This document shows positions 15,632-44,493 of a DNA stretch of 64,000 nucleotides, one piece after another. The DNA comes from Girardia tigrina (lineage: Eukaryota): NCBI GenBank assembly GCA_001938485.1, contig MQRK01225091.1:1-64000 (forward strand), written 5' to 3'. Within the stretch, counting starts at the first letter, position 1. Each line of letters begins with the position of its first letter. Made by a program: the position numbers and the translations under genes. Below the pieces are notes generated by a model. That model saw only the letters and a program-made list of their open reading frames with translations. It was not told the DNA's origin and searched no databases.

Positions 15632-16190
15632 CACATACATCATCATCAGCAATATTTGGAAATTTAGTATTTTAATATTTGTATAGTTCTCCATGATTTT
15701 GGCTTGTGTGGGCTAGAATCTAATATTTTAATTGTTATTAATAATATGATTTTAAAATGTATATTAAGTTTAAATAGAATATTTTTTTAATGTATTTTAT
15801 TTTATTAAAGTATTATTGGGTAATAATGGAAAAAATATTTTAATTAAAAATTTTAAGTATTGAAATGACCTTAATGGGCAAAGTAAACTAATTTCAAATT
15901 TAAAAATTTTTAATTAAAATATTTTTGCCATTATTACCCAATAATACTTTAATAAAATAAAATACATTAAAAAAATTCTATTTAAACTTAATAAACATTT
16001 TAAAATCATATTATTAATAACAACTAAAATATTAGATTCTAGCCCACACAAGCCAAAATCATGGAGAACTATACAAATATTAAAATGCTAAATTTCCAAA
16101 TATTGCTGATGATGATGTACGTAATCATCGAAACATGTCCAATAAATATATAAAAGAAGCTTTAATCAAATTATATTTTAAAAATATTAA
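15632..16190. repeat. About 230-bp-arm inverted repeat (PLE pseudo-LTR fold-back)
   Basis: 15636-15866 is the reverse complement of 15891-16119 with few mismatches. The unit is homologous to 44276-44532. Confidence 0.9.
16101..16144 (+). ncRNA. Minimal type-I hammerhead ribozyme
   Basis: TATTG-CTGATGA-T-GATG(tacgtaat)CATC-GAAAC-AT-GTC-CAATA: helix I TATTG/CAATA, complete core, palindromic ACATGT helix III and a GUC cleavage triplet. Confidence 0.85.
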
Positions 16191-16309
16191 AAGCTGTGGA
16201 CAAACCATCTATGGTCAAACCCCCACTGTGGACAAACCTCCTGTGGTCAAACCCCCTATGGTCAAAGCACATGTGGTCAAAGCACCGCGTACCAAAATTT
16301 ATTTTCTTG

Positions 16310-17220
16310 TACGTGCAAATGTGTTCCACTTCTGCTCTTCGATGAATGTTATCACTTCAGTTACACCCCTTGGATAGTAATAAATCGTGTTACTTTCGAA
16401 CCTACATTATCCGAGTTTTATATGAAGCTTCATCCACTGATATGGTGTCGACCAATCTTGATGTTTAATTGTCCGATAGGTCAACACAACAGATTTATCA
16501 TAATGTAAATATTCATGAGACTATTTATTTTCAGTATCAAGAAACGCTTGAAAAAATCTTCCTTGCGAGGGGCTTTTCTCTACGAGTTTCCTCTTTCTTT
16601 CTTACTAAATGAAATGACTCAAAACCATTTTAGTAGTTGGTGTATTATTTCTTGCATCTTTAAATCAATTTTGATAGAATGAGAACCACATATCATTTAT
16701 ATACGAAATCACTTTCATTTTTTCCATTTTTTTATAAAACACTCAAACATACTACTACTTGATGCCAACTTAAGAATACCAAGATCTTCTTCAACTTGCT
16801 CTCCTTTGACTTAGAAAAGAAAAATTAAATGCTTAATAATATTTTATCACACAAGCATCCAACACATAATTAAAACATTTTTGCCGAATTCCTTCAAAAA
16901 GCCCCTCGTATAGCTTCCGAAGCATCGATATCAAACATTTGAAATTAGTAGGCTCTTTTGAACTATCTAAAATTGTTTGAAATATACAAATTTAAAGTCA
17001 TTCTTTCTTTCATTCAAACAAACAGCAATGTAAATCGCATGAAAGGGTCGATCGATACCAGTAATACAAATAATCAACACTGATATACCTTTCCAATTCC
17101 ACTTATATGTTGCATCAGCATCCAATTTGTTCGACTTGTAAACATTTTTAGTCAATCATTTTGTCGAAATGAATTATCTTCAAATTTAACCTCTTCATTA
17201 TCATCATCAACAAACAGCCT
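16310..17220 (-). pseudogene. MULE transposase core relic
   Basis: LDADATYKWNWKGISVLIICITGIDRPFHAIYIAVCLNE, and further downstream NNTPTT../NGFESFHLVRKKEETRRE. Many stops and frameshifts. Confidence 0.8.
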
Positions 17221-19184
17221 TGATGTTTTTATTTTTTTTCATTTTTTATTATATTAAATTCATCATATTATAACAAATAAAATTATTTAATTAATTACTG
17301 AAATTATTAAATTAATTAATCAAGAAATACATTTTTTACTGATCAAGAGCCATTTTTACAGAGCAAAAATGAAAAATAATGTCCATTTAAATACTGAGCA
17401 TTTATTAAAATATATTAATAAAATAATTAAAATACTGATAAATTGAAATAAAAAAAAATACTTACCATTAAATTATAAGCAAAATTTATAACTCGTTTTT
17501 AAATATAAATTTTTGAAAAAAATTATTAAAAAAACTTTTTTAAATCAGGAAACTCAATAAAGTATTAATTCTTCAATAATATTTTTTGTTCAGATTTTTC
17601 CAATTTTATTCGTTATTAATAAATTGCAAAAATATAAATAAAGTTAGAATTCAATATTTCTTTCATCAACGGAAATGCGGCTTGGAAAAAAAACATTACC
17701 ATAGAATGATGAAAAAATAAATTTTTGATTTTTCTTTTCTGTTTAAAAAAATTACAAATGTATATATTCTTGAGAATAATAATTCTTATATTTTATAAAA
17801 AAGAATAATTTAGAGAAATTCGTGTTCAAATTATAATAAACTGATTTTTGCTAAAAAAATCTTATTTTTTGTGAATATTTAAATAAGAGAGTTATAAACC
17901 AGATCAAAGGTTTTCCATTTTAAAATATTTTTATAAGTATAATTAAAATAAAATAGTTTGAATGATATCTTACAAAAATGTTGGTTGACTTGAAGAACAA
18001 AAGAAACTGAATTAAATTATACATGTATTTATTTATAAATGATATGGTTAATTATATAAGCATTTTGTCAAAGCAAGTTTAGATTTTTTTTCATACTTAA
18101 ATTTTATTTTACGGAAAGATCAACATTTAGATCAACATAGTTTTTTCAAGACGTAACTTCTCTTTCTTTCAATATACGTTTCCCCTAACTACAGTCAAAA
18201 AAATGTTTTAAAAGAAGAAACATTTGTCATTAAAAGAAGAATTACAAGTATTTTGCCTGATAGAAATGTAGAGGATGAGTTTTTGGTCTTAAAATAATAA
18301 TTAACTAATAGATTTTTTTTACGTATTTGTCATGTTATATAAATTTTAAACAACTATTTTTAAAAGATTTGACACAATATAGAATATCGGTTTATATTAG
18401 GACAAACTCAAAATGTGTCAGAAGTTTTTGGACAAAAGTTCATCAAGATCCTAAACAAGATTTAGTAGTAACGCGCCTTTTAAATTGTTTTAAATATATC
18501 TCATTAAAATTCAGAAAGTTTGAGACGAAATTTATAATCCGTTTACTAATATAGAAATTGTAAAAATTCTGATATCTACAACAAAATAAAAAGAATCACA
18601 ACTTATATTTAATAGCTAAACTATAAAAAATATTTATTTTAAAAAACGCACATATATTGTTATTGATTCGGCAAGGAAAACTGTTGAGGCCCCAAAGATT
18701 GACGGCATTCTGCTGGATTTAAATATCAGATCAGGGTCTCATCTGAAATGATGTTTCCTAATCGACTGGACAAGGACAATTTCTGAAGTTAGACTTTGAA
18801 AGGATAGCAATTTTCTACAATTTAATGGATTTGGAGTTGAGATTTCGTGTCCACGACTCAAAACTGTTATCTCATTGAGTCAGTTAGAGTTGTAAAATGA
18901 CCGGAAAAATAAAGGAAGCATTTTAGTATGTGTTTTAATGGGATCCAATTAAAAGATTTTACTGAATAGTTTGATGTTAATTACTGATTTCGATAGTCTG
19001 GTCTTTGGAGTGATGTTTTCGCATATAAAACTGTCAAAAAGAAGTTTTTCTAGCTGGAAATAATGGTAAAAGTTTGGATATTCCGGAATCTTCAAATTAA
19101 TAATTGGTTTTTTTAAACAATTCCTGATTAAAAAAGTTAAATCAAATAAATTATAATTAGTGAGGAATCCATAAAAAGTATTTA

Positions 19185-19646
19185 TTATGAAAAAATATTA
19201 AAAGAATCATAATTATTAACAACATCACAATTTGAATGTAAACATTTATTTTCAATACAAACAGATTCTTCACAACAATTCTCAGAGGTCATCTTTCTTT
19301 GATTGATATAGTTTTTTGTTAATATATTCAAATCTAAAAAAACAATGAATGGGAAATTTTTTAATATTAACTTTTAATTTCTCATAATTTTATTGGATAA
19401 AAGTCATTACGTAATTTTTTTAAATAAACATTAATTTTTAAAATATATTAAATTTCATAAGTTAAAATCGTTTACTGAAATTATTAATGAAATTCATAAT
19501 TATCAAACTTTAATTAATTAGTACTTAAAATTAATATCATTAGATTCAAATAATAATAAACATATCAATCCCATCTGAGTAGGAGAGTCACAAATCTAAA
19601 CAGCATAAAAACAACAAACTTACAACATTCCAAATTATCCCTCACA
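19185..19646 (-). repeat. TGTGAGG-family copy D with Cys-rich ORF 19185-19292
   Basis: tgtgagggataat...tgtgactctcctactcagatggg; ORF MTSENCCEESVCIENKCLHSNCDVVNNYDSFNIFS*. Confidence 0.7.
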
Positions 19647-19950
19647 ATAATATTATGACAAAACGAAAAAAAACACAAATTTGAATTTCAATTATAAAGA
19701 ATAATAAAAATAAGCAAAATATACATTTATAATAAACAAAATTTAGACACAATTTCCGCTTCTTTTCCTAATTTAACAATCATTTTATAACAAAATTATT
19801 GTTAATGAATTTTGACCTTTACTTTAAATATATTATTATTTTACGTTAATTTTAAATTCAAAAAATAATATTTAATTCAACTTTAATTTTAAATCTTTTC
19901 AAAAACTAAAATGAATATTTTTTTAATATTTAAAATTTTTCGAAAAACCA

Positions 19951-20214
19951 GGTCTCAAGACAAAAATGAATTTTAAATCAGCTTATATAAGCTAGCAGTG
20001 ATTATGTCATCATTGGATTATTATGTCATTTAAACAAGCTTAATAGAGTTTTTGAGAGATCGATTTGGACATTAATCATAGGATCTAAAGATCTGATATA
20101 AAGTGCTTCACATGCCACCCTCTCCCAATAGTTCTTAAAACGAGCAATCTATTGATGACATAATTCCTGCTTACCGATATAAGCAAATTTAAAAGTAATT
20201 TTTTTCTTGAGACC
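19951..20214 (-). mobile_element. Penelope-like 3' fragment with inverted repeat
   Basis: Minus 20026-20148 reads IARFKNYWERVACEALYIRSLDPMINVQIDLSKTLLSLFK*. 19951-20012 and 20153-20214 are diverged inverted copies. Confidence 0.8.
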
Positions 20215-20589
20215 TATTGATGACTGTTATAACATCTTAAAAAATAAAAATTTATTTTTTTTATAAATTGCGTATTTAATTTACCATAAATTTTAAATAT
20301 TTAATTCTTTTTACCTAGATTTATTCTTTTGTAAATTTATTTTAAATGTTAAATTATTGAATCTCGATCAGCTGAATGAAAATTAACAAATTTCTCATAA
20401 AGATAAAAGTATAAATTTGGAAAAATTATTTCTAATTGTTAGATGAATTTTAATTTTCAAAAAATATTTATTAATGCAACAAAAAAATTATTAAAACAAA
20501 TTTTCGTTTTTATTTTATTATGTTTTTTAAATTTTCTAGATATATATTTTTTCTAGATTTATATTTTTCGTTAATTGATTTACATTTTG

Positions 20590-20895
20590 ATTATTTCGTG
20601 GGGGACCCCTTGACCACGTTTATTTTTCTTGTTTATTTTCTAAATAATTGAGGTTCAGGGCCCATTTCGAGTGTTGTTTGGGTAAGATTCACTTTAATGA
20701 AACGACCTTGTATTCGATCGTTATTTTGTCTTTACGATGCGCATTGCCGGAGCGGAATATTTCATTCTATAGGAAACATGTTCTTTCAGTCGTAAAATCT
20801 TGGCCATGTTTTTAAACACTTCCTCTGCTGTACGACCAAGTTTGAATTAGTGGACCAAAATGAAGTTTTCTTCACACTTTTAAACATTTTAATTT
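20590..20895 (-). pseudogene. Highly degenerate mariner transposase N-terminal fragment
   Basis: FKLGRTAEEVFKN...FRSGN...(W)VPHEI across frameshifts. Confidence 0.55.
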
Positions 20896-21584
20896 GTTCT
20901 TAAAATCAATAGCTTTTACAGAAAATACCCTACCAAGCGAATAATTTATTTAAATTCTCCTGAGAATATATAATAAATAAAATCCATATAATATCTACAT
21001 TTATAGGTTTTTTAAATAAATGACAAAACTTTAGTTCTTGTCTAATAAAAATTCAAAGCAGACTTGTCTAAATGTTCCTAATAGTAACATAGGGATATTA
21101 TTTACCATGTATCATTAAGAACTTCAAATTCAATTATAAGGCTCCTCCGATATGACGGGTAACTGAGTTTCGACGTTTACAGTAAACTACAGTACCAGCA
21201 TTGTAATACAGGGTACTGGAACATAGACTCTGTATCGGCTAGGAACCATAAATAGATAATATAGAGCCTATTGACTTTCTTTCACGGCTTTAGATGCAAA
21301 TATTCAAAAATATTTTCATTGCCCGTGTCTCTATATAGTTCAGTGGTTTTCAGAAAACGAAGATTAAGGATTTGATGAACCAAAAGATAGAATGGATTCA
21401 ACTTCCTTTTTTAATTAATAAAATTAATACATTCGAACTCTGGTTTAACGAAAAACATGAGGATTGAGAAAATATTCGTTAAAACGGGGTTTGACTGTAA
21501 TGGCCGATCGCTCCCAATTTTATTGAGTATTCATTTTTAACATTTAAAGAATAAAAATCCATATACTTTATCGAAAACATTTTG

Positions 21585-21868
21585 TTAATCAAGACACAAA
21601 AATCCGTCCATTATGGCTTTACGTCGTCGACCTAAGGCAGATTTCATCAGACTTGCTTCCAAATCTACGACTAAAATGTTACCGGATATGCCGTGTTCAC
21701 TGCAAAACTGACAGATCCCAGAGAGACCAGCAATTGCTTCAGATAGTGATACTGATTGTTGTTGGAAGAACATCTTCTCCTTCGTCATTTTCACTTCCAG
21801 CCTGTTTCATCATCAGTAAGAATTTCTTCCATCACAATATCTTCATCGATGTTAACAAATTCTTCCAT
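21585..21868 (-). pseudogene. pogo/Tigger-like transposase C-terminal fragment
   Basis: MEEFVNIDEDIVMEEILTDDE, then SVSLSEAIAGLSGICQFCSEHG...RRKAIMDGFL. A Tigger-like TIR (ttcgttaaaacggggtttgactgta) lies nearby at ~21476-21499. Confidence 0.55.
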
Positions 21869-22279
21869 AGATGGTGTTGAACTAAATGTGGAACCAAAAT
21901 AAGTTATAATTCACTTACATATATTCTTAAGCTTTATTGTTAAAATTTTATATGTTTATGAAAATATCCCCTTATTTACTTATAATGTATTACATTACCG
22001 TTAATTCGAAATGAAAAACTACAATGAGTATACTCGTATGCATTTTCATTATTTTCTCAAAGGGGAAATCGTTGTTTTTAAGTTCATAAGTATACATGTT
22101 TTGTATATAAAAGTACATTCTTAAAACTTAGAAAAAGTCAAAGTTGCTTTTCTAAATATCATTGTAAAGAATTTGGTTTGAAGGATGCATCTGGTTTCAA
22201 TGACCATTTGAAGTTGGCGAAGAAAAAATAACAAAGACTGTAGAAACCTTAGATATATTCATATATGAAGATTAAAATC

Positions 22280-22765
22280 ATTTGAAGAAACTACAATTCG
22301 TCAGGAAGCTCAATTTAATATTTCAAATAATTAACGATAAAAAATAATTCATTTCCATTATATAAAACGCCGACCCTCATGGATAAAACTTTATGAGCCT
22401 ACTAACACCATATCAAAAGCAGAAATTCACCCGAGGAAGATAATGAGTAACATTTAGTGTTTTTGAACTCCTTTAGCTGAATTTATCATCAATTCAAACA
22501 TATCCGCTGGAGAAATTTGCTCCTTCCATTCAATAGAATTATCCTGAATCGGTAAATCAAAAAGGATTTGTAATTGATCATGCAAGCATTATTACTAGTC
22601 AGAAATTTTTATATTTGGGCTGAATGTTTTTTGCTGTTTCTGTCATATTTCTCAGATATGGCTTAGATGTTACTTTTACTTATTTAGATGCCTGTAAAAC
22701 TCCAAAAATCGAAACAAAATTGTCTCTCATGATTGCATCAAATCATTTTTTGATGTCATTTTTGC
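22280..22765 (+). pseudogene. Very old mariner relic
   Basis: SKAEIHPRKIMSNI*-like segment and other residual motifs; heavily decayed. Confidence 0.35.
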
Positions 22766-22769
22766 ATAC

Positions 22770-23207
22770 TGTGAGGAATATTTTGAATATTTGATGTTTT
22801 GTGTTTGAATGTGTATGTTGATTTGGAACTGTGTCTCTCCTACTCAGATGGATGATTAATGTTTTAATTCTTATTATCTAAAAATATTTAATGTTTAAAT
22901 ATTTTTTAATTTCATATAATTTTAAAATTTTAAATAAGCTAATTAATTTTTACAATTGTTAATAAATAAATCAAATTATTATTTTTTAAATAATTAAAAA
23001 TCATTTCAATTTTTATCCAATAAGTTTTGAGTAAATATTTAAATAAATTATTTATTTCTTCATTTGCTAAAAAATAATAATTATTAATGCATTAATCAAA
23101 TTAGTTTAGAATGCAATCGTATGAAAGCTTTGACAACAGATTGTCTAAAGGACAATCAAAATTGTTGTGTAAATAAAAATATGAAAAGTCAAATTGGTGT
23201 TCTTAAT
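22770..23207 (+). repeat. TGTGAGG-family copy E
   Basis: tgtgaggaatattttg...tgtgtctctcctactcagatgg. ATG at 23111 gives MQSYESFDN, then a frameshift to DCLKDNQNCCVNKNMKSQIGVLN. Confidence 0.7.
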
Positions 23208-23733
23208 ACATATAAAGACGAGATTCTTTATGAATCAGGAATAAGGAAGCTACCGATAAGATAGTAGAAAGAGATTGAAAATAGTATACAGTATATCGGG
23301 TAATCTTATCTGTACAATCGTGACATTTTTTATGATAATTGTAATGTTTTACCTTTCCAACACCAGTAAAGTAAATCAGATTCAGCACAAATAAAATATT
23401 ATATGAGTATATATGTATGTGTATATTTGTGTGAATATATATACGATTGAACAAGTGATTTCTTTAGTCGTTTTTTGTGAGATTTCGTGGATGATATTGT
23501 TTATGTTTGGTATGCGCCTCAACTTTATTTGTAGTATTTTATTTTTATATTTATTTTTTTATCTAATTATTTATTATTATTACCCGTATTTAAATAGTTA
23601 TTATCATTTACTTACCTAAAATTATCCATGGATAATGATAATTACCATGGGATAATACAACTTCAAAAATAAAATCAATAAATAATAGAATTTAAAAAAT
23701 TAATTAATAATTATTATTCGCTGTTTAATAATA

Positions 23734-25010
23734 TTAGGTTGGTCGAAAAATAATGGCGGTTTTGGGACACAAACTTCAAAGACGTGCAAATTCACAGAAA
23801 CAAAAGTTTATTAATCAAAGTATGAACCGTTGGCATCAATACATTTTTGCCAACGAGAAACAAGTTCTTTTATTCCATCAGCATAAAATGTATCGGTTCT
23901 CGAAGCGACGAATTCTTGGAAGGCATTTTCAGCATCATTTTGGTTTTTGAAAGTTTTTTCACGTAGGAAGTTGTACAAATGTCTGAAAAAGTAGAAGTCC
24001 GTTGGCGAGAGGTCTGGTGAATATGATGGATGAAGCAGGGTTTCATAGCCCAACTCATTAAGCTTTTGAAGAGTCCCTTTTGAAATATGAGATCTAGCGT
24101 TATTATGAAGAAGGATGGGACTTTTTTCATTGACCAATCCCGGACAAAAGGGTTTCAATTTCTTATGCATTTCATCAATTTCATGACAGACCTCTCCGCT
24201 GTGATTGTTTCACCTGGATTCAAGAAACTATAGTAGATGATTCCAGCATCACACCACCAAACTGTCACCATAACCTTACGGGGTGTTAGTTTCGGTTTTG
24301 GAAAGTGTNNNNNNNNNNNNNNNNNNNNNNNNNNNNNNNNNNNNNNNNNNNNNNNNNNATCCATTTCTCATCACAGGTAACAATACGATCAAGAAATGGA
24401 TCGTTTTTATTGCGAAGATGATTGACAGAACAAATTTCATAGCGTCGGTTCTTTTGATTTTCATTCAAATCACGTGGGACCCATTTATCAAGTTTTTTGA
24501 TTTTTCCAAGTTGTTTTAAATGACCTAGGACTGTTGAATGACTAATGCCCAACCCATCTGCAAGTTCTCTGCTTGTTGTATGGGGATCTGTTTCCACCAT
24601 TGTCCTCAAATTGTCGTTGTTCACAGCAACTGGACGACCACGACCTTCTTCATCTTCAAGGTTTTCATCTTCATCAGAAAATTTTCAGAACCATCATTGC
24701 ACTATGCGCTCAGAAGCTGTTCCCTTTCCAAACGCTTTATTGATATTGTGAGTCGTTTCTGCTGCTTTACGACCCAGTTTGAATTTGTACAAGAAAATTG
24801 CTCGAATTTTAATTTTTTCCATTATTAATTTAGCACCGTAAATATTCTAAAAAATAACAGCAATATGTTAATAATGGCTATATGAATATACAGCTAGGCA
24901 TAAGAATTCAAATAATATCTAACACTAATGCATTTAAACTTATATACATATAAAAGTAGATAAACAAAGTATAAAGCTCAAAAACCGCCATTATTTTTCG
25001 ACCAACCTAA
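23734..25010 (-). mobile_element. Mariner DNA transposon, full-length, same family as 1286-2541; disrupted transposase about 23811-24822
   Basis: Perfect TIRs ttaggttggtcgaaaaataatggcggtttt with TA TSD. WVPRDL, IVTCDEKW, HNNARSH, HPSYSPDLSPTDF and RWQKCIDANGSYFD are present, with frameshifts. Confidence 0.95.
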
Positions 25011-25429
25011 TACACGATTGCTACAATTATTATTAGTTTTGCTAACGTGGATAATGTATTCCAACAAATACTGAGAATCCTAAAGAAAATACTCATTTTC
25101 GACAACTTATCAATTAAGTAATTACTAGATTAAATCATTGTAACTTTTTGCAACTCTTGAATGCACTCTAGATTAGTTTCGTTCGTTTTCAATTCGTTTT
25201 CAAGCTTTTCCTTACATAAAAGTATCTATTTGTTGTTTTTTTTAAATGAAACTGCAATTTTTTCAAAAAATACTCATAAATGCAACTTTAATTGCAACTT
25301 CAGATGAAAGATAGTATTTTTTTCCACTATGTTGACCTTTTCATACAACCTACTTATGATTTTTTTTCTAAATTTTATTTGATTTTTTCATTTTTTCTGA
25401 TATTTACCCGAATTTTTCATTTTTTAAAA

Positions 25430-25552
25430 TTTTAATTTCCGAGACTTAATTTTTCTAGACTTAATTTTCCAAAACTTAATTGTCTGAGTTTTAATTTTCC
25501 GATACTACATTTTCCGTGACTTAATGTTTGAGATCGAAATGTCGTGCCCCCC
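25430..25552. repeat. Sub-repeated TIR arm of a MULE-like element
   Basis: Tandem ~15-bp units gacttaattttcc ending in aaatgtcgtgccccc. The partner arm is not seen. Confidence 0.45.
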
Positions 25553-27967
25553 TGGACACGATTGTAAATCAAGAAATATTAAAAATTAGATATTAAAATT
25601 GTAAATAAAAATATATTTACATTAAAAGTAAATGTTTTTAATATTATTTTTGTTTAAATTTATCACTAATTACTAAAGAAATTTCAATTTCAAAAAAAGA
25701 AACTAAAAGAAATAAAAACCTCCTAATACGACTATTTCTGTATACAAAATAAAGATACCTTTATTTGACTGTCCATCCATTGAACTGTTAACGAAAAGTA
25801 ACTTTACGAATTTAGTTTATTTAGTAATTTCTTATTAGACCTTTTCCTGTTTATTTTTGTCTGTGATATTCTTTTTTTCTTCTTTCCGTTGTAAATTTAA
25901 AGTGTTTAATACAATTTATATCCTTTTAACTATTATTATTATTATTTGTTCTATTACATATACTTTGCAAAATTGTAAAATTGAATAAGTCTAATAAAGA
26001 TAATTAGTCCGACTACAACAATTTTTTTTTATTTTTATTTCAATTTTACAACAATAATTAAAAAAATACCTTTTGACTTTTAACCAATTAAATAATTTAT
26101 ATTGTTTAAAAAAATATTTAATTAACTTTGTCAAAAACGTTTTTTTTATTTAATTCATTTTTGAAAAATTAAAATAAAATATGATAATTTTATTTTGTAT
26201 TAAAAATTTATAAAACAAAGTAATTTCTGTTGTAATTTCTCACAGTATTAAATTTTTATGTTATAAAAGAAAGACTCAATTTTGAGTCACTTCGAGCGTA
26301 CACAGCTCAAACGCAAACAAAAAAGAAAATATTATTAAAAAGTAATAAATTTCCCTAAAGAGACTCAATAAAGTAAAATGAATAAAGTTACAAAATTATT
26401 GATTAAAAGTTTTGGCTGACCATAACATCCTACTCATTAAAATTTTATTATTTATTTAAAAAATAAAAGAAAAAGCCAAAAATAATGTTTATTAATTTAT
26501 ATTTTAAATTTAATATTTTTTTTTATAAAATTAAAAAAAAACTTTGATAAATTTTCTTTTATAATCCAAAATTTTACAACGATTACTTGTAAATAAATAA
26601 ATAAATATAATAAATTATAAATAAATAAATGTTTGTTTATTTATTTTTTATCGTAATTTCTTAGAATTTTATCACAAAAACAGATTGATAAATATTTTCA
26701 ACTCAAATTGTTCTGGGAGAATTAAAATAAAATTATTATTATTAAAAAAATAATTTTCGGTAATTGTAATTATTAAAAAAAACCAAATTGCATTTAAAAT
26801 AATAAATTATTATAAGAAAATAATTCATTGAAAAATTTGTTTATTAAAGATAATTCATTATCCATTTGCTTTTCAATAATCAAATTTTATTTTTTAATAA
26901 AAAAATATTATTTCATATAACAACATATTTCTTCAGTTATTTTTTCTTGTTCTTTCTTAAGAATTTTGTTTGATTTCATCAAGAACCAGTGTAATCAGAA
27001 TGAGTGATATGAAATAGATTATTTGAACCAGAAATATTTATTTCCTGACAAGTTGAGCAGCAGATTGAAGATGGATTAAGGCTTGTTAGAATCTGATTGA
27101 ATGGTTGGGAATTATCTGATAAAGATTCCAGTCCAAGACTAATCATGGCGGGTTGTAAACATCCACACTGGTTGTAGCTAATACTTGGTAGAAGAGTGTA
27201 ACAACACATTTGAGGGTTTAATTGTTTCAAGAGTTGATTGGCTGAAATTATATTTCATTAAAAAACAGAAATTGTTTAAGGTTTTTGAATAATAATAATA
27301 ATAATAATAAAAATATAATAACTGAATTTAATTTTTTTCATGTATATAACATCCAAAATAATAGACTACTTTACAGTGAAATCAACAATCAACAATAAAA
27401 AATATTAAATTTATTAGGTTCAGATTCACAATTTAAACTTATGACAAAAATTTATTTCTATCACAAAAAAGTTTTTTAAACAAATGTTTTCGAGGAACCA
27501 AAGCAAATTATATTTTTTTACACAAACCCTTATAAATAAAAAATATATATAAATATAGATATTGTTATTTAATTTATTAAGAATTTAAATTTTATACTCG
27601 TTTTTTTTTAAATTATAAAGGTATTTTATTAAAACTGTCATAAGATTTTATTTAATTTTTTATTAAATTTCCGTTTTACTTTTACATTTAATTTAATCGC
27701 GTTAAAATTATATTTTTATATTTCGATAAAATCATAATTTAAAAAATAAAATTAAAATCATATTTATTTAATTTATTTTACTTAAAGTTTTTTAAATTAT
27801 GATAAATTTAGATAAAAGTTACAAAATAATATTTCAGTTTATTAACATTTTCAAAATAAAATAATAAATTTTATAATTATTTGTATTTTACTTCAATTAA
27901 ATATTTCAAAAATAAAATATTAAATTTTATATTCTATGCAAAATTAAAATTTACTTTATTACTTTAT

Positions 27968-28503
27968 AATTATTAAGAACACCAACATGGGTTTTCAAAC
28001 TTTTATTTTCAATACAGTCAGATTTGTCTTTTGGACAACTCTCAGAAAAACTCTCGTCATTCGACATCGTTCTAAATTGATAATTTTTTTGTTAATGTTT
28101 TTAATAAACAATTATTCGAACAAATATTTCATTATTTTCTGATTTTATTTTTACAGTTCAAATTTTGTAATTTTAGTATCAATTTTATTTACATATTAAT
28201 TTTATTTAAAAAATATTTTATTGAAAGAAGAAACATTTATTTAATTTAAAACTTAGTTAAAACTATTTATTTTATTTAAATTTTAATATGAAAATTTGAA
28301 AAGATTTAATATTTTTTAAGTTTTTTAAATATCAGCATGATGTACCTTAAAAATATAAATTATACTCGAATAACTATTTATCGTGAACATCTAAAATATC
28401 AATTTTCCATCTGGGTGGGAGAAACACATTTCCAAATACTAAACTCAACATACAAAATTCAACAAACCAATTTCAACATACCAAATTTCAAATATTCCTC
28501 ACA
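27968..28503 (-). repeat. TGTGAGG-family copy B
   Basis: Highly similar to copy A; ATG at 28067 gives MSNDESFSESCPKDKSDCIENKSLKTHVGVLNN. Confidence 0.85.
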
Positions 28504-29027
28504 ATAATAAATCTTTTTACTGACTCTAAATTAAATTTTAATAAACCTGCTGTAAAATTTATTTTATTTTTACATAAAATAATTTGTACATTAAATTGGA
28601 AAAATTTTAACATATATATAACTCTTCTTTACGAAATTTAATTATTTAATTATTGATTTGATCAAATTTTAAGTTCGAAAATTTTATGAACTCACCAAAG
28701 CTCCTAACAAAATTAATGTTTATTATACTATGTATACTATGTATATTATGTATACTGTGTATATTAACAATGACTTAGAAGGATTTGGAAAGAACGAAGA
28801 TATTCAAAACTGTATTACAAAACGTATTTTTTGCACTTTTCGAATATTTTACTATACTGAAAGTCATCATTTCTAACCACGCACAGTTAAGAAAACATAA
28901 AGTTCTCTTGAATCGACATTTAGTATGATATTTCAGTCCAATTGAATCGATTAAATTTCGAATAGTTTTGGATTTGATCTGAAGTCTCAAATTGAGTTAT
29001 TGCATTGATTGGAAGAAGTTTCATATC

Positions 29028-29539
29028 TGTGAGGAGTATTTTAAATTTGGTATGTTGAATTTTGTATGTTGAGTTTAGTATTTTGAAATGTGTTTCTCCC
29101 ACCCAGATGGAAAATTGATATTTTGGATGTTCACGATGAATAATTATTCGAGCATAATTTGCATTTTAAATTACAGCATAAAATATTTCAAAAACTTTAA
29201 AAACATTAAATCGTTTCATATTTTAATATTAAAAATTTTAATAAAATAAATAACTTTCAACTAATTTTTACATTGATTAAATGTTTTTCTTTAAATAAAA
29301 TCATTTTTAAAATATAATTAATATGCAGATCAAATTATTACTAAAAGTATAAAAACTTTAAAAATAAATTCTGAAAATAATTAAACTATGTTCGAATAAT
29401 TGTTTGTCAAAAAACAAAAAATTATCAATTTAGAGCTATGTCAAATTCTGAAAGCTTTGCTGAGAGTTGTCCAAAAGACAATTCTGATTGTAATGAAAAT
29501 AAATGTTGGAAAATCCATGTTGTTTTCTTAATAATGTGA
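29028..29539 (+). repeat. TGTGAGG-family copy C (divergent from copy B)
   Basis: tgtgaggagtatt...ctcccacccagatgg; ORF 29438-29539 MSNSESFAESCPKDNSDCNENKCWKIHVVFLIM*. Confidence 0.85.
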
Positions 29540-29672: not shown

Positions 29673-30522
29673 TTACAACTGTAAATAGGACTGTTTCAAA
29701 ATTACAAAATCTCGAGACATGACAATATTATTATTAACAACATCAATATGAGTTTTACAACATTTATTAATTATCACAAGCGCATTCACTATTTGGCATT
29801 TTTCTTGATATAAATAAAAATATATTTCTGAATTCATACTAATTATTTTCAATAAATGAAAATCTGGTAATAAAAATGATCTTATCTTATAAAAGCCCAA
29901 GTCACTCACTGCCTGCCTCACTGCCTCACTAACGCTGTAAGGTAAATTTTTGAAATGATTTTATAATCAATAAAGAAATGATTGTATATTAATNNNNNNN
30001 NNNNNNNNNNNNNNNNNNNNNNNNNNNNNNNNNNNNNNNNNNNNNNNNNNNNNNNNNNNNNNNNNNNNNNNNNNNNNNNNNNNNNNNNNNNNNNNNNNNN
30101 NNNNNNNNNNNNNNNNNNNNNNNNNNNNNNNNNNNTATACTCGAAACACTGAAATTTTCAATAAAAATGCTTTCAGAAAAAAGTCGCGTGATCTAATAAC
30201 ATTGAACCCCCGGCAAGAGAGGGCCGCGAAGCGGGCCGAGCGCGCTAGTTAATTATAAAGAATGTAATTGGTTGAAATTAAATCTAAACATTCTTGAAAA
30301 AGAACGTATTAAATTAATACATTAAAATTTTAAATTACATTAAAAAATAAATAATAAATTCAAAAATTATTTTAAATCTTTTTACTTTAAAATATAATTA
30401 AATTATTTTTAATTAGTAGGAATCAAAGAAAATACCAATCATCCATTTGTGCAGGAGAGACACAATCCGAATAAACACACAACATGCACAATATCAACAC
30501 ACGATTCAAAACATTCCTCACA
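29673..30522 (-). repeat. TGTGAGG-family copy F, interrupted by a Helitron-like insertion
   Basis: tgtgaggaatgtt...tgtgtctctcctgcacaaatgg at 30522-30440. The ORF remnant NKCCKTHIDVVNNN lies at ~29725-29770. Confidence 0.6.
29880..30248 (+). mobile_element. Non-autonomous Helitron-like element
   Basis: Starts TC after A, has a cact/gcct microsatellite, a subterminal GC hairpin ggccgcgaagcgggcc and a CTAG end before T. Contains an N gap. Confidence 0.75.
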
Positions 30523-30610: not shown

Positions 30611-30653
30611 GTGATCTGAAGATGACGGTAAAACCATCGAAATATATTATCAC
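30611..30653 (+). ncRNA. Minimal type-I hammerhead ribozyme (second sequence type)
   Basis: GTGAT-CTGAAGA-T-GACGG(taaaa)CCATC-GAAA-TATATT-ATCAC: helix I GTGAT/ATCAC, palindromic ATATAT, AUU triplet and one mismatch in helix II. Confidence 0.75.
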
Positions 30654-32339
30654 AACAAAATATATTTTGACATTAGATATATGTTTATATTTTAAACCCC
30701 CATTTGCAGGAAAATAAGCTATGACTTGAAGCTATTAATTTGTCCTAATACAAATCAATTTTATCATAATTATATTTGAAAATTCGCATTTTTGGAGATA
30801 CTTGGATAATATTTTCTTAATGTTCCTTGAATTTGATATATTCAGATCGTTTGTCTAATTTTCTATGCATCCATGAAGTCTATAAATTGGTATTCCATTT
30901 ATTTTAATATATATTTCTGGGTAAAGTTGAACGAAATATTTGCTTTTAAGATACAGAAATTTCTATTTTTTCTATGTTATCTGACATTTGACTATCATTT
31001 TTGGTACATATTAACAAATTAACTTGAAATAAGAAGCAAACATTTATTTTATTGAGCTCTTGAGCGAGTGAAACAAGTGTCATTTTACTGTTTATTACAG
31101 AAACCAATTCCAAACAAGTGTAAGTCGTGAATATAAAATAGAAAATTAGAACTGGTTATATTATTTATTATGAATATAAATTGTATTTACAATATTAACA
31201 AGAAAATATTTTTGATTTTTTAAAAAATTTTCAACATTATTTTTTTTAATTTATTTTGTTTATTTTCAATTTATTAATAATTTATGGCTGAAGAGCTTTC
31301 AGAAAATATTATTGAGGATATAAAAATTTATAGTAATTTTTAAATGTTATTAATTTTTTTTGAAAGAATGTAAAATTAAATATGCCAATTAAAATGTAGA
31401 AAATTTTAAAATACGCAATTATTTGATGAACTAAAAGAAATTGTAAAATTAATAAACTTTCATAAAACGAATAAGTATTTGATAATGTTAGCGTAATTTA
31501 AATTTATAAAATGAAAATAAAATCAAATATTAATATTATAAGTGCATTTATTTATTTTGGTTTAAGATAATTTGTTTTATGAGATAAAACAATTTTTTAA
31601 TTATATTATATTTTAAATTATTTGACTGTCAACTACAAGATAAATCGAAGATAGCGTTTTTTTCTAGGACGCCGACTACGAGTAATTTTACACAGTGTTT
31701 ACTCTCCATATTCGTGCAGCTACTATTAAACTCGTAATATATCAGTGCTAATATGAGTAAATAGCTTCTGAGAAGAGAGCAAAAAAATAATGCTAGGTTA
31801 CATAACCAGAAAATTTATTAATAAATGAAAGCAAACTATAATTATAAAAAATATATTCAAAATATAAGTAAAAGAATAGTTTTATTATTTGCGAAACATT
31901 TTAAAACAATCGTTCATACAATGTTCGTGCGTCTCTTTACGTGTCGGACAACACATTTTTAGGCATTTTTTACTTGTATAGATTTATAACATGACTCTGT
32001 CAACCGCTGTGCTTTTCCGGACGGACCGATCCATTCAAAATACAGCCAATTTACTGATTGCTACTAAAATATTTAACATTTTTTTCATTTTTATTTGTAA
32101 GGATATTTTTGTTATAAATGTGTATGTGCCGAATTTATGGGGCCTCCTGTGGTCACACGTATTTGCGATCCCAAATAGGCACCTGCAAATCAATGGTATG
32201 TAATAAGTTTATACAAAGGTTCTTGGTATTTTTAAGTAAATTCTTTGAAAAATTTCAGAGAAAGTGCAAAAGACTATTTCACAAAGTAATCTATATCGAC
32301 ATCTAATATCAGTTGCCGGGAAATTTTTTACTAGATTGA

Positions 32340-35202: not shown

Positions 35203-35372
35203 TGTCATCTATGTGTACTGAGAGATTCTTGCTAAAAAATGCACTCTCGATCACCGAAGAACATCAACCAATTAACTAATTCGGAAAAAAGGTTGAGTTT
35301 AAAAAGGTAACTCACCAAAGGTGAACCCCCATGGGACCAGGTGCTCCGACAGCCCCTCCAGACCTTGTTACA
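35203..35372. mobile_element. Possible solo LTR (170 bp)
   Basis: TGTCA...TTACA termini flanked on both sides by ATCA (35199-35202, 35373-35376); GC-richer than the flanks. Confidence 0.4.
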
Positions 35373-37644: not shown

Positions 37645-37841
37645 TTATGTTTTTGTCTCTCATGGTCTCATTTTCAAAGTTTTTTACTTTATTGATTTAA
37701 CTCAAATGATCTAATTTTGTTGGAAAAGAAACATCAAGAGCTGCTGCTAATTCACTTGTAGTTTGAGATAGATCCCTTTCTACTAAGACCTTCAAGTCAT
37801 TATTATTGGTTATGGCTTCAGGTTATCTACGTGGTTCATAT
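37645..37841 (-). pseudogene. Mariner transposase fragment
   Basis: EPRR*PEAITNNNDLKVLVERDLSQTTSELAAALDVSFPTKLDHLS*INKVK (second HTH). Confidence 0.75.
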
Positions 37842-38746
37842 TTCGAGCCAAAAAAGAGGGTTTTTGCTTGCCCTAACTACCAAACCATTTTGGGTATTTT
37901 CAATTATGGCCTTCTTATTAGTTGATCTAAAAGCCCTATTTATCAAATGCAAGGATGCTATTTAAAAACAGTTGAGGTAAACATAGATGTAGTTCTAGGC
38001 CTTAGAGAAGGTTTTTGGAAAGCTTTGTTACATTTGGTTGAACCTTTTACAAACGCATAGGAAACAGACAACAATGAAATATTCATTATAACTAAGTTTT
38101 AATGAATATTCAAGAAAATTATACTTTTTTAAAAACATAAATGCAAAAATTAGAAAAAGGTAATGAATTTATAAATCATTTTTTAGAAAAACAATTTTTT
38201 CTTAATTTTCTTCATAAAAATTATTAAATAATAAAAATTTTTGCATCTTTCCTACAAACAAATTTAGAATATTTTTACAATAAATATTTCATTTATATGT
38301 GCCCCTTTTTGTCTAAAAATAAAATTTATTTTTATCTTTTTTTAATATTAAAAATAGTAATAAATTGTATAAACATATTTTTTTTCAAAATTATTGTAAA
38401 TGAAAAAAAATGAGTTTCCTGATTTACAACTAAATAATTAATATTTGAAATGAATGAAGTAAAGCCGTCTCAAACCTTGAATTAATTCACGTATTTTTAT
38501 ATAATTATTTAATCAGATTTTTCTTAAATAAATTTAATTTTTATTAAATATATCTCTTAATTTTTAAACATTTATAATTTTTTAATCTACCATTATTAAC
38601 TGCGCATAACCCGCATCTCAATTTTCGATCATTAAGTTCCTTTTGAAAATAATAATGTAATGTAAATAATAAATAATGTATAACTCACACCCATAAATAT
38701 TTCAAAAAATCGTCTTTTTCCATCATATTACCCGAGGATTATCCAC

Positions 38747-38860
38747 TGTAAAAGAGCTAACTGAAAACGCGTTTCAGTGAACTCCTTTTAACGTAAAAAA
38801 TAAAGGTAAATATGTATAAAACTTTTATTTTTATACAATATAAATAAACATATATAACAA
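38747..38860 (+). repeat. Dispersed repeat shared with ~62140-62256 (inverted)
   Basis: ctgtaaaagagctaactgaaa(a)cg.gtttca.tga.ctc.ttttaacg is present at both loci. Confidence 0.6.
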
Positions 38861-39258
38861 AAAATATCACATACGAGAGAGAGAACGGCACAGATAAATC
38901 TCGATTTCGATTTGTGTTTCTTGTTCAAAGGTTTCAAGGAACGATCTTCTGTTGTAACAATATCGATGGAAACGTCAGAGAACCATTCGGTTGCACAACG
39001 AGATTTTGAGAAAATAGATCACATGAAGAGGAGCACTTTCAGGGAGAATATTGATAAATTGGCTTGCAGAAAATTCCTTTACGAACCGATTTTAAAAGAA
39101 AACGCCCCGCAGGCAATATAGTATAATAATATTAATATTAATAAACAATAATATTAATGATTGTTTTTATCGATTGTTTATATATATATATATATATATA
39201 TANNNNNNNNNNNNNNNNNNNNNNNNNNNNNNNNNNNNNNNNNNNNNNNNNNTCGATT

Positions 39259-39315
<57 letters not shown>

Positions 39316-40188
39316 ATATAATAATTGACTAGGTCACTACATCCACTGTAAATTAGGGTAATTAAACATCGAAATGTGTTTAATAAATCAAACTTCTGTA
39401 AGTTTTAATTAAATTTTTTTTTAAATTATTTATCAATAATATTAATTTAACGTTCACAAGATTTATGTATTAAAATGATCATTAAAAATATTTTTTAAAA
39501 TGTTTTTTTGGATTGATAAATCGAGAAAGTAAGTTGAAATATTCATATATTTTTGCAAAACGTTATTCTCATTTTTCTACTCAACTTCCATTACAATCGT
39601 CCAAAATGTTAAACAATATGAGCATTACACTGGCAACTTGGTTTTGAATAGCTTTTATCATGAATGTATTTGAATGAATGTTTAAATAATTTATGATATT
39701 ATTCCTGTCATTCAATTCCAACAAATGTTCTTTCATAGGAGAACAATATCTTAATAAAATCACCTCTGTCTGAATGGTATTGATTTTCATCACTAGCTCC
39801 GTGCCCGGAGTCTGTGCTTGAACATTCCAATTCGTGACAAACGACCGGAGATTTGATCAACCCACTTGGGCTAGTGGCATTCTAAATAAAAATATTCATA
39901 ACCATATCTCTTTTAATTTATTAATAAGTTACTAAATTACAAAATTATTATTTTTCATTTAATGTAATATTACTTTATTTGGTAACAGATTTTATTTTTG
40001 ATGAGAAGTTAATATTCGAAGAAAAACAATAGAAAGGTTTACTTGATTACGAAGAAGGATTAGGAAGCTCATAAGTTTACTGCCAAGACCATTAGAATAT
40101 CCTTATTTACTTTCATTTACTTTATAAAAAAAAATACTTTTTACATAAAAAGTGCTTTTATGTTACTATTAATATAAATGTATATATA

Positions 40189-40341
40189 CAGGGTGTCCCA
40201 AAAATATGTATACACATTAAAAATTTAATTTTATTGAATTTTATTGAATTTTATTTATGTTTAACTTTCATTAACATAATGAAAGTATAATAAAAGTTAA
40301 ACATAAATAAAATTCAATAAAATTCAGTAAAATTAAATTTT
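40189..40341. mobile_element. Palindromic Tc1/mariner MITE (right end lost in N gap)
   Basis: TA-CAGGGTGTCCCAAAAATATGTATACACATTAAAAATTT... is mirrored by ...aaatttttaatgtgtatacatattttt before the gap. Confidence 0.75.
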
Positions 40342-40887
40342 TAATGTGTATACATATTTTTNNNNNNNNNNNNNNNNNNNNNNNNNNNNNNNNNNNNNNN
40401 NNNNNNNNNNNNNNNNNNNNNNNNNNNNNNNNNNNNNNNNNNNNNNNNNNNNNNNNNNNNNNNNNNNNNNNNNNNNNNNNNNNNNNNNNNNNNNNNNNNN
40501 NNNNNNNNNNNNNNNNNNNNNNNNNNNNNNNNNNNNNNNNNNNNNNNNNNNNNNNNNNNNNNNNNNNNNNNNNNAAATTTTATTTACATGTGGCTTTAAT
40601 TGTACTTTAAGTGAATTCTGACTACAGTTTTTAATGCGATGTTCTAATAATAAATATATAAAATTGCTGGAACGAACAACTAAACAACATATTTATGTTT
40701 GAAAATCTCAATAAAATGTTTTGCTATTTGAAAAACAAATCATAAAAGTACTTGGCAAAGATTATTTAATTTGAAATTTTCTTTTCTATATCAAGTTAAT
40801 TGTTATACAAACTATTATTACAATTTCAGTTACTATTTTATAATTACTATAAATGTTGAAGGAGGTTTTCGATCGTAGAAGTATTTA

Positions 40888-40917
40888 GGGGTGGCTGGTG
40901 AATTATGGCCGCGACTG
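40888..40917. repeat. Isolated Tc1-type TIR
   Basis: ggggtggctggtgaattatggccgcgactg-TA (the reverse complement begins TA-CAGT). Confidence 0.5.
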
Positions 40918-41549
40918 TAAATTAAGTGATAAAATTGGTTTAATAAAAACTTGTTAAGCTGAAATACCGCAAAAATTTTTAAAAATAAAAAAACTATAAA
41001 AGTTGAATTACCGTCTTATTTAATTTATTAACATCAGTGACGTGAACGAACTACATCTAAAACAACTCAAATTCAAAATCGGTGACGTGAAAGAATTAAA
41101 AAAAATGAAAATGTACAAATGCGAAATGAACTTACTAATCGAAAAAAATGAAAAATTGTTGAAGAAGAGCAAGACTAATACGAAATTAAAAAGTCTAAAG
41201 AGGTTTTAGAAAACTTGTTAGCCTGGAATGGTTCCAAATTATTAGACGCGATTGACAACTGATGTCTACGACATGGAGCAGATCATCAAGGATTCCGTTT
41301 TCGATTTAGTGGACAAGGAGACATTCAAAATGGACATGACGCAGTTGGAGAGAATCAATCTTTACTATAAGGTTGATGCAAAAGAAGTGTCGTTTTTAAT
41401 GTATTTAATTCATTTTATTCATTGTTTGAAATATTTAGAAAAACATTATTAAATAGATTCATATTTAAATTTACTTTAAAGCTTAAACTTTACTCTATAT
41501 TTTGATACCAAGTATGACATTATTGTTGCTAATTTAAGGTGTATTTATT

Positions 41550-42539
41550 TTATGTTAGAAAAGAAAGAAATGTGACCAATTTTATTCCACGATTTCTAAC
41601 TACAGAAAAGAGACCGAAACGGCTCGGAATATTAACAATGTGTTTGGGCAACATACCACTAATTTACGAACAGTACAACATTATTTTTACGAAGTTTCGT
41701 AGTGGCAACGAGAGTCTTGAAGATAAAGAACACGGTAGTCGACCATCACAAGTTGACGACGACCATATGAAGTAGTTAATCAATGCCGACCCGCATAAAA
41801 ATTCACGGAAAGGCCCTCAAGTCCATCTGAAGAAAATCAAGACAGTGAAAAAACTGGACATGTCGATGCCGCACGAATTAAACAAAAATCTAAAAAATCG
41901 TCGTTTTCACGTGTGTTCTTTTCTGCTTTTGCGTAATCAAAGTAACCCGTTTCTATATCGAATTGTAACATGCGATGAAAAATGGATTCTAAACGACACC
42001 CAGCGACGTTCAGCTCAGTGGTTCGATTTCAATGAGGCTCCAAAGCCTTTCCCGAAGCCAAAATTTCACCAAAAAAAGTCATGGTAACTGTTTGGTGGTC
42101 CGCACACGGTTTAATTCATTAAAGCTTCCTAAAACAAGGCGAAACAATTACAGCGGAAAAGTATTGTCAGCAAATTTACAAAAAGCACCAAAAACTACAA
42201 AAAAACAACCGGCATTACTCAATAGAAAGAGGCCAATTCTTCTGCATGACAACGCTCGTCCACATGTTGCAAGAAAGACCATGCTGAAGTTAAACGAACT
42301 GGAATATGAAACTTTGCCTCATCCTCCGTACTAAGCAGACCTTTTTCTTACAGACTATCAGCTTTTCAAACATTTCAGCCAGTTCCTTTGCAAAAAATGC
42401 TTCAGAAACCAAAGGAGATGCTGAAAAAGCCTTGGACGACTTCATCGCCCCCAGAACTCCAAAAATTTATGAAACTGGAATAAAAAAACTTGTTACCCGT
42501 TGGCAACAGTGTGTTCAATGTAATGGTTTTTATTTTTAA
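41550..42539 (+). mobile_element. Degenerate mariner element
   Basis: KFRSGNESLEDKEHGSRP, MPHELN, IVTCDEKWI, LLHDNARPH, LPHPPY and RWQQCVQCNGFYF over several frames. Confidence 0.9.
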
Positions 42540-43992
42540 ATAAACTTTATAAATAAATAAAAATAATAAACATGAAATAAAATAATGATAAAATAATCCA
42601 CAATTAGAAATAATATATTATATTAAATATTATAATAATAATTACGGATCTTGTAACAATATTATTTAATAAAAATAATGGTAATATGTCTTCAAAAACC
42701 CATTATAATAAAATTTATTTTTCGTAATCGCCTTTTATAATTTTAATGGGTTTATTTTATTTAAATTCAGCATTTTCTTAATAATAAGATCAAACAATTT
42801 TATAAATTCTGAGCGACAAAAAATCAACAAAAATGTAAATATAGCTCTCCTGAGAGAGATAATAAAAAAGTCGAAAATAGGTTGAATGAATTTTATAACT
42901 TAGCAATATTTATTGAAATTATTTCTTACTAATAAAAAAATATTATAATTTCTTCGAATAAATAAACAAATTGTATAAAAGATCAAAAATATTTATGTTA
43001 ATGTGAAAAACAACCATGACAAAAATAATTTAAAAAATATTATTTATTTGTTATTATATGATGAAATGTGTTTATATTTCCCTAAAATATATAATGGTAT
43101 TGTTTAAAAAATTGTATTTATTTATTTATATTAATTATGAATTTTTTAAATAATGTTCAATAGAATATTCAGAAATGTTTTTGTAAATTATAGGATCATT
43201 TATTTTCTTCTAAGAATTTAAAAATATAAAAAGTGCAATTGCATACAGACAGCGGTTACTATGGACAATTCATACGTTCCTATAAAAAAAGATAAAAGTT
43301 AACTTGAAAGTGGTTCACTTTATCCTTTAATTGTATGGTAGTTGAAATAGAAAAGGATTTAAATATTGCAAATTTATGGTATAAATAATTTTTTATACAA
43401 TAATGAATTAAAATATTAAGAATTAAAAATAAAATGAACCTTTATTATTTGTAAAATCTTAAAATGGAAAATACAAGTTATTTAAATCAAAATATTTATA
43501 TGACTCCAGTCTCGATCGTTGATGTTTTCGATTAATTATAGAATAGATTCTCTTAGAATAAAGTTAAAGTTGATATTGAGATAGACAAATAATGTGATTT
43601 GTTAGATGGGGTCCTCAATAGTTTTGTTTCGGTAAATCTTTGGCAATAGTGTAGATAAATTAATGGTTTAATAATAGAACAAGGACGTCTGTAGGATAAT
43701 TTCGTTCGTTAATAATTTTTGTTATTGATGAGATAACTCCAAATGAGTAAAAAATTATCTAATATGAGTTAAAAACAGCTCACAATAAAAAATAATGCTA
43801 ATTAGTTACGACTTATATTCCATAACTAAATCAATATCACTATGAAATTTGTATAATGTATTTAAATATTGCATTTAAATATAATATAAACAATTACTAT
43901 TGAATTAAAATTTTTATGTAATTTATTATAAATGTAACACTTCTGATTGTGGCTGCTTATAGTATGGCTCAACAGATAGGACTAATATTAAA

Positions 43993-44048
<56 letters not shown>

Positions 44049-44079
44049 AATAATTTGATTAAAGCTTTTTTTATATAAT

Positions 44080-44123
44080 TATTGGTAATTTTTCGATGTT
44101 TACATACATCATCATCAGCAATT
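44080..44123 (-). ncRNA. Hammerhead motif, mutated helix III and cleavage site
   Basis: ATTG-CTGATGA-T-GATGT(atgtaa)ACATC-GAAA-AATTAC-CAAT; the GUC is replaced by UAC. Confidence 0.6.
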
Positions 44124-44451
44124 TTGGGAAAATCGTCATCGCAAAACCCGGATTAGCGAGTACTCGCAAATGAGTCGATCGAGTAAGGTTCTTGATCATT
44201 GGTTATGTTGTAAGGATAGAACCTCATCCATTCAAAAGATGAGTTTTCTGTTCTACAAAAGGGTTTTGATTCACATTAAAATATTTCAAATTTTTAATTA
44301 AAATATTTTTTGCCATTATTACCGAATAATATTTTCATAAATAATAATGTTTAATTTTTTTGATACCTTTTAAAGTAAATTATATCTATTAAAATTGTAT
44401 TAAAATTGTTTTATTCAAACAATTCAATATTCATTTACTAAACATCCGAAA

Positions 44452-44493
44452 ATTGCTGATGATGATGTATATAAACATCGAAACATGTCCAAT
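44452..44493 (+). ncRNA. Minimal type-I hammerhead ribozyme
   Basis: ATTG-CTGATGA-T-GATGT(atataa)ACATC-GAAAC-AT-GTC-CAAT; intact core, same family as 16101. Confidence 0.85.

Follow-up and report, generated by a model that had tools for sequence, protein, structure and literature searches.

The 64,000-nt stretch analyzed here (the window; positions 1 to 64,000 of contig MQRK01225091.1 from Girardia tigrina) contains a series of short hammerhead ribozyme motifs, three of which, termed A, B, and C, are intact (Table 1). These motifs are very probably minimal type-I hammerheads of the pseudo-long terminal repeats (pseudo-LTRs), at the 3′ ends, of endonuclease-containing (EN+) Penelope-like elements (PLEs), which persist in the window as 5′-truncated and decayed insertions. 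A and B are the 3′ ends of one PLE family and share the same anatomy: the end of the open reading frame (ORF), a 3′ untranslated region (UTR), the hammerhead, and a tail. An inverted, truncated twin is attached head-to-head to each of them, and each insertion lies beside or near a (TA)n run.

A, B, and C are genuine minimal type-I hammerheads and stand far above chance. All three carry CUGANGA, the extra U, GAAA, a 6-nt palindrome, and UH. An earlier sequence-only reading of the window had reported three motifs with complete cores (at 16101, 30611, and 44452), an extra U, and a short self-complementary helix III, and had identified them as minimal type-I PLE hammerheads; both statements stand, the latter by the match of the core to the published consensus. 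The closing pair of helix II is G10.1-C11.1 in all three, and the extra nucleotide precedes helix II. Helices I and II comprise 5 and 4 bp in A, and 4 and 5 bp in B, with cleavage predicted after 16139 (3′ of GUC) and after 44489, respectively. C has an AUU triplet, a predicted cut after 30648, and one C·A mismatch within helix II.

A relaxed descriptor gave four sites in the window a score of at least 8 (A 13, B 13, C 11, and the inverted twin of B 8), whereas no site reached this in 60 dinucleotide shuffles (2-kb blocks), the best of which attained 7.0. The descriptor was drawn up after the motifs had been seen, and it agrees with the published consensus of PLE hammerheads (PMC4209133, supplementary figure S3). 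A strict scan recovered A and B only, and C required the relaxed descriptor. CTGANGA occurs 26 times in the window, against 13.0 ± 3.9 expected; the sites at 24677, 26936, and 30576 were discarded, as their helices do not match or they lie within mariner coding sequence. The Rfam scan of the window returned no hammerhead, either at the gathering threshold (0 matches) or up to an E value of 10 (6 unrelated weak matches). It could be argued that the motifs are chance matches, or that the inverted twins are artefacts of an AT-rich, gapped assembly of short-read type with 8 N runs, and the weaker relics (E−, F, and D) do score close to noise. We give this view almost no credence: the failure of every shuffle to reach a score of 8 refutes chance for A, B, and C, and the arms of the insertions differ by 3–8% at aligned positions, which argues that the twins are not a duplication artefact.

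The origin of A and B is indicated by the coding sequence that adjoins them. A 43-residue translation beside B matched one protein, P0151 (536 aa, with a reverse transcriptase (RT) domain; 87% identical). The fragment at 44131-44276 corresponds to residues 453–501 of P0151, with 33/36 identical residues followed by 15/15 past one frameshift (tblastn, E 6e-34), which confirms the reported link of the 44452 copy to a GIY-YIG fragment. About 25 codons, a conserved Glu among them, are absent after this fragment. At A, positions 15873-15917 represent the last 14 codons and the stop of a P0151-type ORF (13/15 positions identical), with a score of 62; of the 127,906 six-frame positions, the best unrelated one scored 27. 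On the left arm (15872-15840, minus strand), 10/10 residues plus the stop match the P0151 C-terminus. Detection of the coding remnant of A required the close relative P0151; a profile made for PLE endonuclease ends in general matched the B fragment and nothing at A or C.

The hammerheads of A and B sit 175–190 nt past the stop of the P0151-type ORF. They are 43/48 identical in the hammerhead region and 42/48 in the tail, whereas the central part of the UTR is divergent (80 matches, 27 mismatches, 49 gap columns). The two hammerheads have the same core and differ only in loop II or at positions beyond the four helix-I pairs that they share. Conservation is as high as in the ribozyme (40/42 positions) over the initial 40 nt of the 3′ UTR, a stretch that includes the stop (15906-15947 and 44290-44332) and is a possible candidate for a cis-element.

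The inverted minus-strand twins of A and B were absent from the earlier account. The arms of A meet head-to-head at 15872/15873 with 226 matches and 12 mismatches; the 90-nt twin of B joins its right arm at 44131, with 82 matches and 7 mismatches. Such structures are known from PLEs. Insertions are accompanied by an inverted 5′-truncated copy and a 30–40-bp tail (PMC8557442), the head-to-head junction is the commonest PLE form (PMC3846280), and hammerheads occur as opposite-strand pairs 100–700 bp apart or as single motifs on truncated PLEs (PMC4209133). 5′-Truncation, an adjacent inverted copy, and a short tail are all present at both A and B. Their arrangement is thus already well documented, and they represent one more member of a described class. 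The same head-to-head layout is found at 13238-13631 of the window and in L010, an unrelated PLE locus with a 912-bp inverted repeat and one minimal hammerhead per strand, which supports the assignment to PLE insertions.

According to the literature, reverse transcription would start within the tail, at a nick in AT-rich DNA, and would stop early, leaving short 3′ ends that carry inverted copies. In the parent element, the two hammerheads of a tandem transcript would swap strands, and their palindromes would pair into a common 6-bp helix III. This shared helix would permit a slow, probably protein-assisted cut after GUC (or AUU), trimming the element RNA. C and the relics would be remnants of the same kind from other PLE families.

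Some details of the arms may be added. Seven of the 12 mismatches between the arms of A lie at 15852-15900, within ~21 nt of the junction; in this part the left arm is identical to P0151 and the right arm deviates at two residues. In B, 3/7 mismatches lie in the 6-nt helix III (44085-44091, minus strand): two changes in the twin (C to A, G to U) preserve the palindrome, and the third removes U16.1. These changes could reflect a different template or chance. A 90-nt stretch (15542-15632) separates the (TA)n run from the truncated left arm of A and has a 10-nt word in common with the A junction.

The sequence-only reading had described the 16101 unit as free of coding sequence and as a possible non-autonomous retrozyme-like unit. 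On such a view it would be an independent element spreading via tandem transcripts and circular RNA. Its length of ~320 nt is within the retrozyme range (PMC7229834), its coding remnant comprises only 14 codons, and animal retrozymes have been proposed to descend from PLE ends (bioRxiv 10.64898/2026.07.22.740005). However, the unit starts with the last 14 codons and stop of the ORF, and on this ground the proposal fails. The ORF C-terminus and stop are present on both arms, each truncated at a different point, and no head-to-tail repeat exists in the window. The ribozyme is also minimal, whereas retrozymes typically carry a canonical type-I form whose loops make contacts (PMC7229834). With neither tandem units nor a lack of coding content found in the window, a retrozyme at 16101 is highly unlikely.

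Insertion A is enclosed by inverted arrays of a 15-bp subrepeat, which we take to be a foldback element or one resembling miniature inverted-repeat transposable elements (MITEs). The presence of these arrays on either side would allow the palindrome of A to have been captured by the enclosing element and to move as DNA-transposon cargo. This seems very improbable: a (TA)7 run (15528-15541) lies within the left array, as would fit a PLE that inserted into an element already in place, and a single such composite is found in the window. Insertion of a PLE into a foldback-like element is the simpler explanation.

The parent family can be characterized through its relatives. P0151 and P0002 share 49% identity, and P0002 carries Pfam RT and GIY-YIG domains; these relatives have one ORF, in which RT is combined with a C-terminal GIY-YIG domain with CCHH. 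In the 20 closest relatives, the CCHH and DKG motifs are present, and the CX2-5CxxC linker finger between RT and the endonuclease is absent in 20/20. In PMC8557442 this combination marks the Penelope/Poseidon type, and by the motifs of these database relatives the parent family probably belongs to the EN+ PLEs of that type. PLEs with a C-terminal endonuclease are known almost only from animals (PMC8557442).

The window contains at least eight PLE pieces of several families. The head-to-head palindrome at 13238-13631 holds the GIY-YIG C-terminus of a second family, that of P0002 (92% identical to P0001/P0002). Its right arm stops at (TA)n ~60 nt past the stop codon, with no hammerhead visible, and its left arm continues into an N gap and (TA)n. 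An inverted repeat at 19950-20215 encloses a PLE endonuclease-end fragment, and another inverted repeat lies at 40200-40361. A scan of bacterial genomes yielded 23 PLE loci, 11 of them from one assembly and none similar to the window at the DNA level. Six of the first 19 loci scanned (L001-L019) have a minimal hammerhead scoring at least 8, and several contain PLE ORFs with minimal hammerheads whose helix III is ACGU or AUAU (e.g., L010, 1579-3865). Most of these 19 loci are probably contamination, apparently eukaryotic PLE contigs in bacterial assemblies.

The following observations weigh against the origin and function proposed for the motifs. There is no full-length, RT-bearing PLE copy in the window, which holds endonuclease-end fragments only. 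At C, tblastn with all 257 PLE proteins and the endonuclease-end profile found no PLE coding sequence upstream. The active A:A dimer is calculated at −12.0 kcal/mol, whereas a mispaired duplex reaches −25.4 and a pair of monomers −14.6. Finally, across four aligned motifs, 44/48 pair cells are standard and 6/12 pairs show a double change, and pair covariation is weak because nearly all of these changes come from C, the other three sequences being of one family. For C, a PLE origin is suggested by the form of the motif alone. A weak peptide resembling the RT active site occurs ~130 nt past C (30775-30861, plus strand; 8/257 PLE proteins, best E 0.028).

The palindromes of helix III (ACAUGU, AUAUAU) can form 6/6 pairs, and only between two copies; the earlier deduction that self-complementarity implies a dimer was correct. 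Strand-swapped dimers with all six pairs can be drawn for A:A, B:B, C:C, and A:B (~−12 kcal/mol), and not for A:C. The further claim that the motifs cleave as dimers in tandem transcripts is unsupported at these loci. No head-to-tail copy of the A/B unit exists in the window, where no direct repeat of the unit is closer than 28 kb; the intact motifs on the same strand are 14,510 and 13,840 nt apart, and their only near neighbors are the antisense twins. In plus-strand read-through RNA, the antisense twin is predicted to pair with 37.6 of the 42 nt of the B core, and 24.3 of the 44 nt of A are predicted to pair far away. The lack of a partner in cis together with an upstream antisense twin suggests that A and B are probably silent relics.

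Lunse et al. in 2017 reportedly devoted a paper to dimer cleavage. Work on hammerhead dimers is summarized in a review (PMC6765202). Minimal motifs are inactive as monomers and weakly active as dimers (PMC4209133), which fits an active dimer that is not the lowest-energy fold. The hammerhead of the Anolis PLE is assisted by protein and its cleavage is dispensable for insertion in vitro (PMC11167929). Judging from these sequences, the hammerhead is probably functional in the parent elements, where dimer cleavage is the likely design; at the A and B loci such cleavage is unlikely.

The genomic copies might instead be live ribozymes that cut host transcripts by dimerization in trans (e.g., A with B) and have perhaps been co-opted. 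The cores of A and B are perfect and those of the twins damaged, and a full swapped A:B dimer can be drawn on paper. Against this, the twins sequester the cores in the predicted read-through RNA, and transcripts starting at the junction are predicted to form helices I and II with a probability of ≤0.19. Published minimal motifs are inactive or weak, as described above (PMC4209133), and the Anolis motif requires the PLE protein and has no reads terminating at its cut site in the data reported (PMC11167929). Present-day activity of this kind is therefore quite unlikely.

A separate and doubtful idea concerns translation. The ORF start could be the AUG inside the palindrome (AC-AUG-U); the dimer would hide it, and cleavage two nucleotides later would sever it from the ORF. 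If true, the ribozyme would convert a tandem transcript from mRNA to template. The motifs A/B, D, and F, which adjoin fragments of three PLE lineages (P0151-, P0002-, and P0153-like), all carry ACAUGU, and their remaining helices differ. When read from this AUG, the tails of A, B, and F contain no stop and that of D contains one; against the idea, open frames of these lengths are expected by chance 10–17% of the time. C has a different AUG, composed of A9, the extra U, and G10.1, from which 31 codons are open; this resembles the Anolis element, whose ORF begins inside its own hammerhead (PMC11167929). The tails of A and C have 8/13 residues in common, a score reached at 2 of 48,240 unrelated positions; this stretch was picked post hoc, and a DNA-level motif would give the same likeness. 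In a rotifer Penelope, the first 12–22 codons lie within the pseudo-LTR and tail.

Three tests for a PLE N-terminus were negative, which leaves the proposed start codon unsupported by homology. Local alignment of the tail peptides with the 257 PLE proteins gave no N-terminal match. With a profile of 71 full-length N-termini, the candidate frames reached 2.0–3.5 bits, equivalent to noise (a wrong frame reached 3.7). In Met-anchored alignments with three full-length proteins, the closest relatives, the scores were reached by 24–29% of the 2,098 ATGs in the window. In L008 and L010, a hydrophobic Poseidon-like start is located past the cut, outside the core (by eye; profile 4.5 and 2.7 bits). No prior report of an AUG within helix III of a PLE hammerhead was found in a limited check covering parts of the literature.

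In total, the window holds nine motifs derived from about six old insertions: three intact, one that has lost U16.1, one cut off, and four relics. The earlier count of about nine motifs is thus borne out; the high density claimed for 64 kb does not follow from it, being inflated by twins and relics in a window chosen for containing motifs. When the four best motifs were combined into a covariance model, the model matched the window at 49 places with E values up to 10. The best matches beyond its own four include the truncated twin of A (15658-15612, minus strand); an AT-rich match at 20394 (E 0.42) is regarded as noise. Relics E−, F, and D are individually weak, near noise, and their calling rests on context. 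Relic F is head-to-head with the PLE ORF fragment at 45474-45530, which is 17/19 identical to P0153. Relic D sits 3′ of the GIY-YIG fragment at 6195-5956, and its tail ends in (TA)n at 5653.

Table 1. Coordinates of hammerhead motifs, PLE insertions, and other features of the window.
Feature	Position	Strand	Remarks
Hammerhead A, minimal type-I	16101-16144	+	CUGAUGA + extra U; helix III palindrome ACAUGU
Hammerhead B, minimal type-I	44452-44493	+	CUGAUGA + extra U; helix III palindrome ACAUGU
Hammerhead C, minimal type-I	30611-30654 (with five helix-I pairs)	+	Different sequence family; CUGAAGA + U; AUAUAU
Right arm of insertion A	15873-16191	+	ORF end, 3′ UTR ~185 nt, hammerhead, tail ~50 nt
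Inverted twin of A	15633-15872	-	Last 10 codons + stop, 3′ UTR, hammerhead cut off in loop II (core 15649)
Right arm of insertion B	44131-44541	+	GIY-YIG fragment, ORF end, 3′ UTR, hammerhead, tail
Inverted twin of B	44041-44131	-	Hammerhead with helix III AAAUUA (U16.1 lost) + tail; ends in (TA)n 43996-44045
Relic hammerhead D	5698-5735	-	U4 replaced, ACAUGU; recognized by eye, absent among the 49 covariance-model matches
Relic hammerhead E−	6359-6410	-	Diverging partner of E+; 15.7 bits, E 0.43, weak alone; aligns pairwise with E+
Relic hammerhead E+	6607-6656	+	AUAUAU type, G12 lost; 22.9 bits, E 0.007 (four-sequence model); aligns with E−
Relic hammerhead F	45423-45469	-	U at position 3, ACAUGU; 16.3 bits, E 0.31, weak alone
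Further PLE ORF fragments	6195-5956, 6820-6767, 9840-9947, 20169-20023, 45474-45530	-, -, +, -, +	Several families
Inverted arrays of 15-bp subrepeat enclosing insertion A	15387-15526 and 16194-16300 (span 15387-16300)		
Mariner/Tc1 transposase relics	1283-2543, 23731-25012, 41776-42548, 57022-57878, 7796-8227		First two ~90-95% identical, same orientation
520-bp non-coding repeat, three copies	14786-15312, 27955-28508, 29028-29535		84-87% identical; probably MITE
Broken LINE-like (long interspersed nuclear element) endonuclease + RT frames	62566-63869	+	Pfam RVT_1, E 1.7e-16
Likely host exon, protein kinase domain start	55502-56059	+	
Likely host exon, helical-repeat-like protein	59752-60279	+	

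The window is AT-rich, with a GC content of 18–36% per 2 kb, and is rich in mariner/Tc1 relics and small repeats. The end of the 520-bp repeat reappears at 22770-22911, 30397-30522, and 51702-51822. A further repeat region at 25362-25533 includes a 15-bp array (25432-25533) with a sequence unlike that around A.

These insertions add one more uncharacterized family to a class found by the thousands in animal genomes. Their significance is largely confined to repeat annotation, for which they illustrate that Rfam misses such motifs, and that a remnant of 14 codons suffices to unmask a seemingly non-coding unit. The purpose of PLE hammerheads is the open question of the field, which dead copies render no more testable unless the start-codon lead holds in a full-length element.

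Three known systems come closest. One is the minimal hammerhead of metazoan PLE pseudo-LTRs (Cervera and De la Peña, 2014, PMC4209133). It has the same consensus, with CUGANGAH, the G...C pair of helix II, GAAAN-palindrome-NUH, and a short helix I, and it likewise occurs as single motifs on truncated PLEs and as opposite-strand pairs. AUAUAU followed by U, as in C, is also found in PLEs of Drosophila rhopaloa, D. elegans, and D. ficusphila (PMC4209133). ACAUGU is absent from the 56 motifs of supplementary figure S3 of that paper, where ACUAGU and AGAUCU are present, and is a trivial variant. The EN+ PLEs of the Penelope/Poseidon type (Craig et al., 2021, PMC8557442; PAc of Anolis, PMC11167929) are alike in RT with a C-terminal GIY-YIG domain, CCHH, and DKG, and likewise in the inverted 5′-truncated copy, the tail, and AT-rich targets, whereas the window holds dead fragments only. 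Several PLE ends in the window abut (TA)n, a bias tied mainly to the linker-finger clades in PMC8557442. Animal non-LTR retrozymes (Cervera and De la Peña, 2020, PMC7229834) are alike in having a type-I hammerhead and a unit that is AT-rich and a few hundred bases long. They form tandem arrays with mostly canonical type-I ribozymes and circular RNA (PMC7229834), whereas the window unit has an ORF remnant, a minimal ribozyme, and no tandem arrangement. A shared PLE ancestry has been proposed (bioRxiv 10.64898/2026.07.22.740005).

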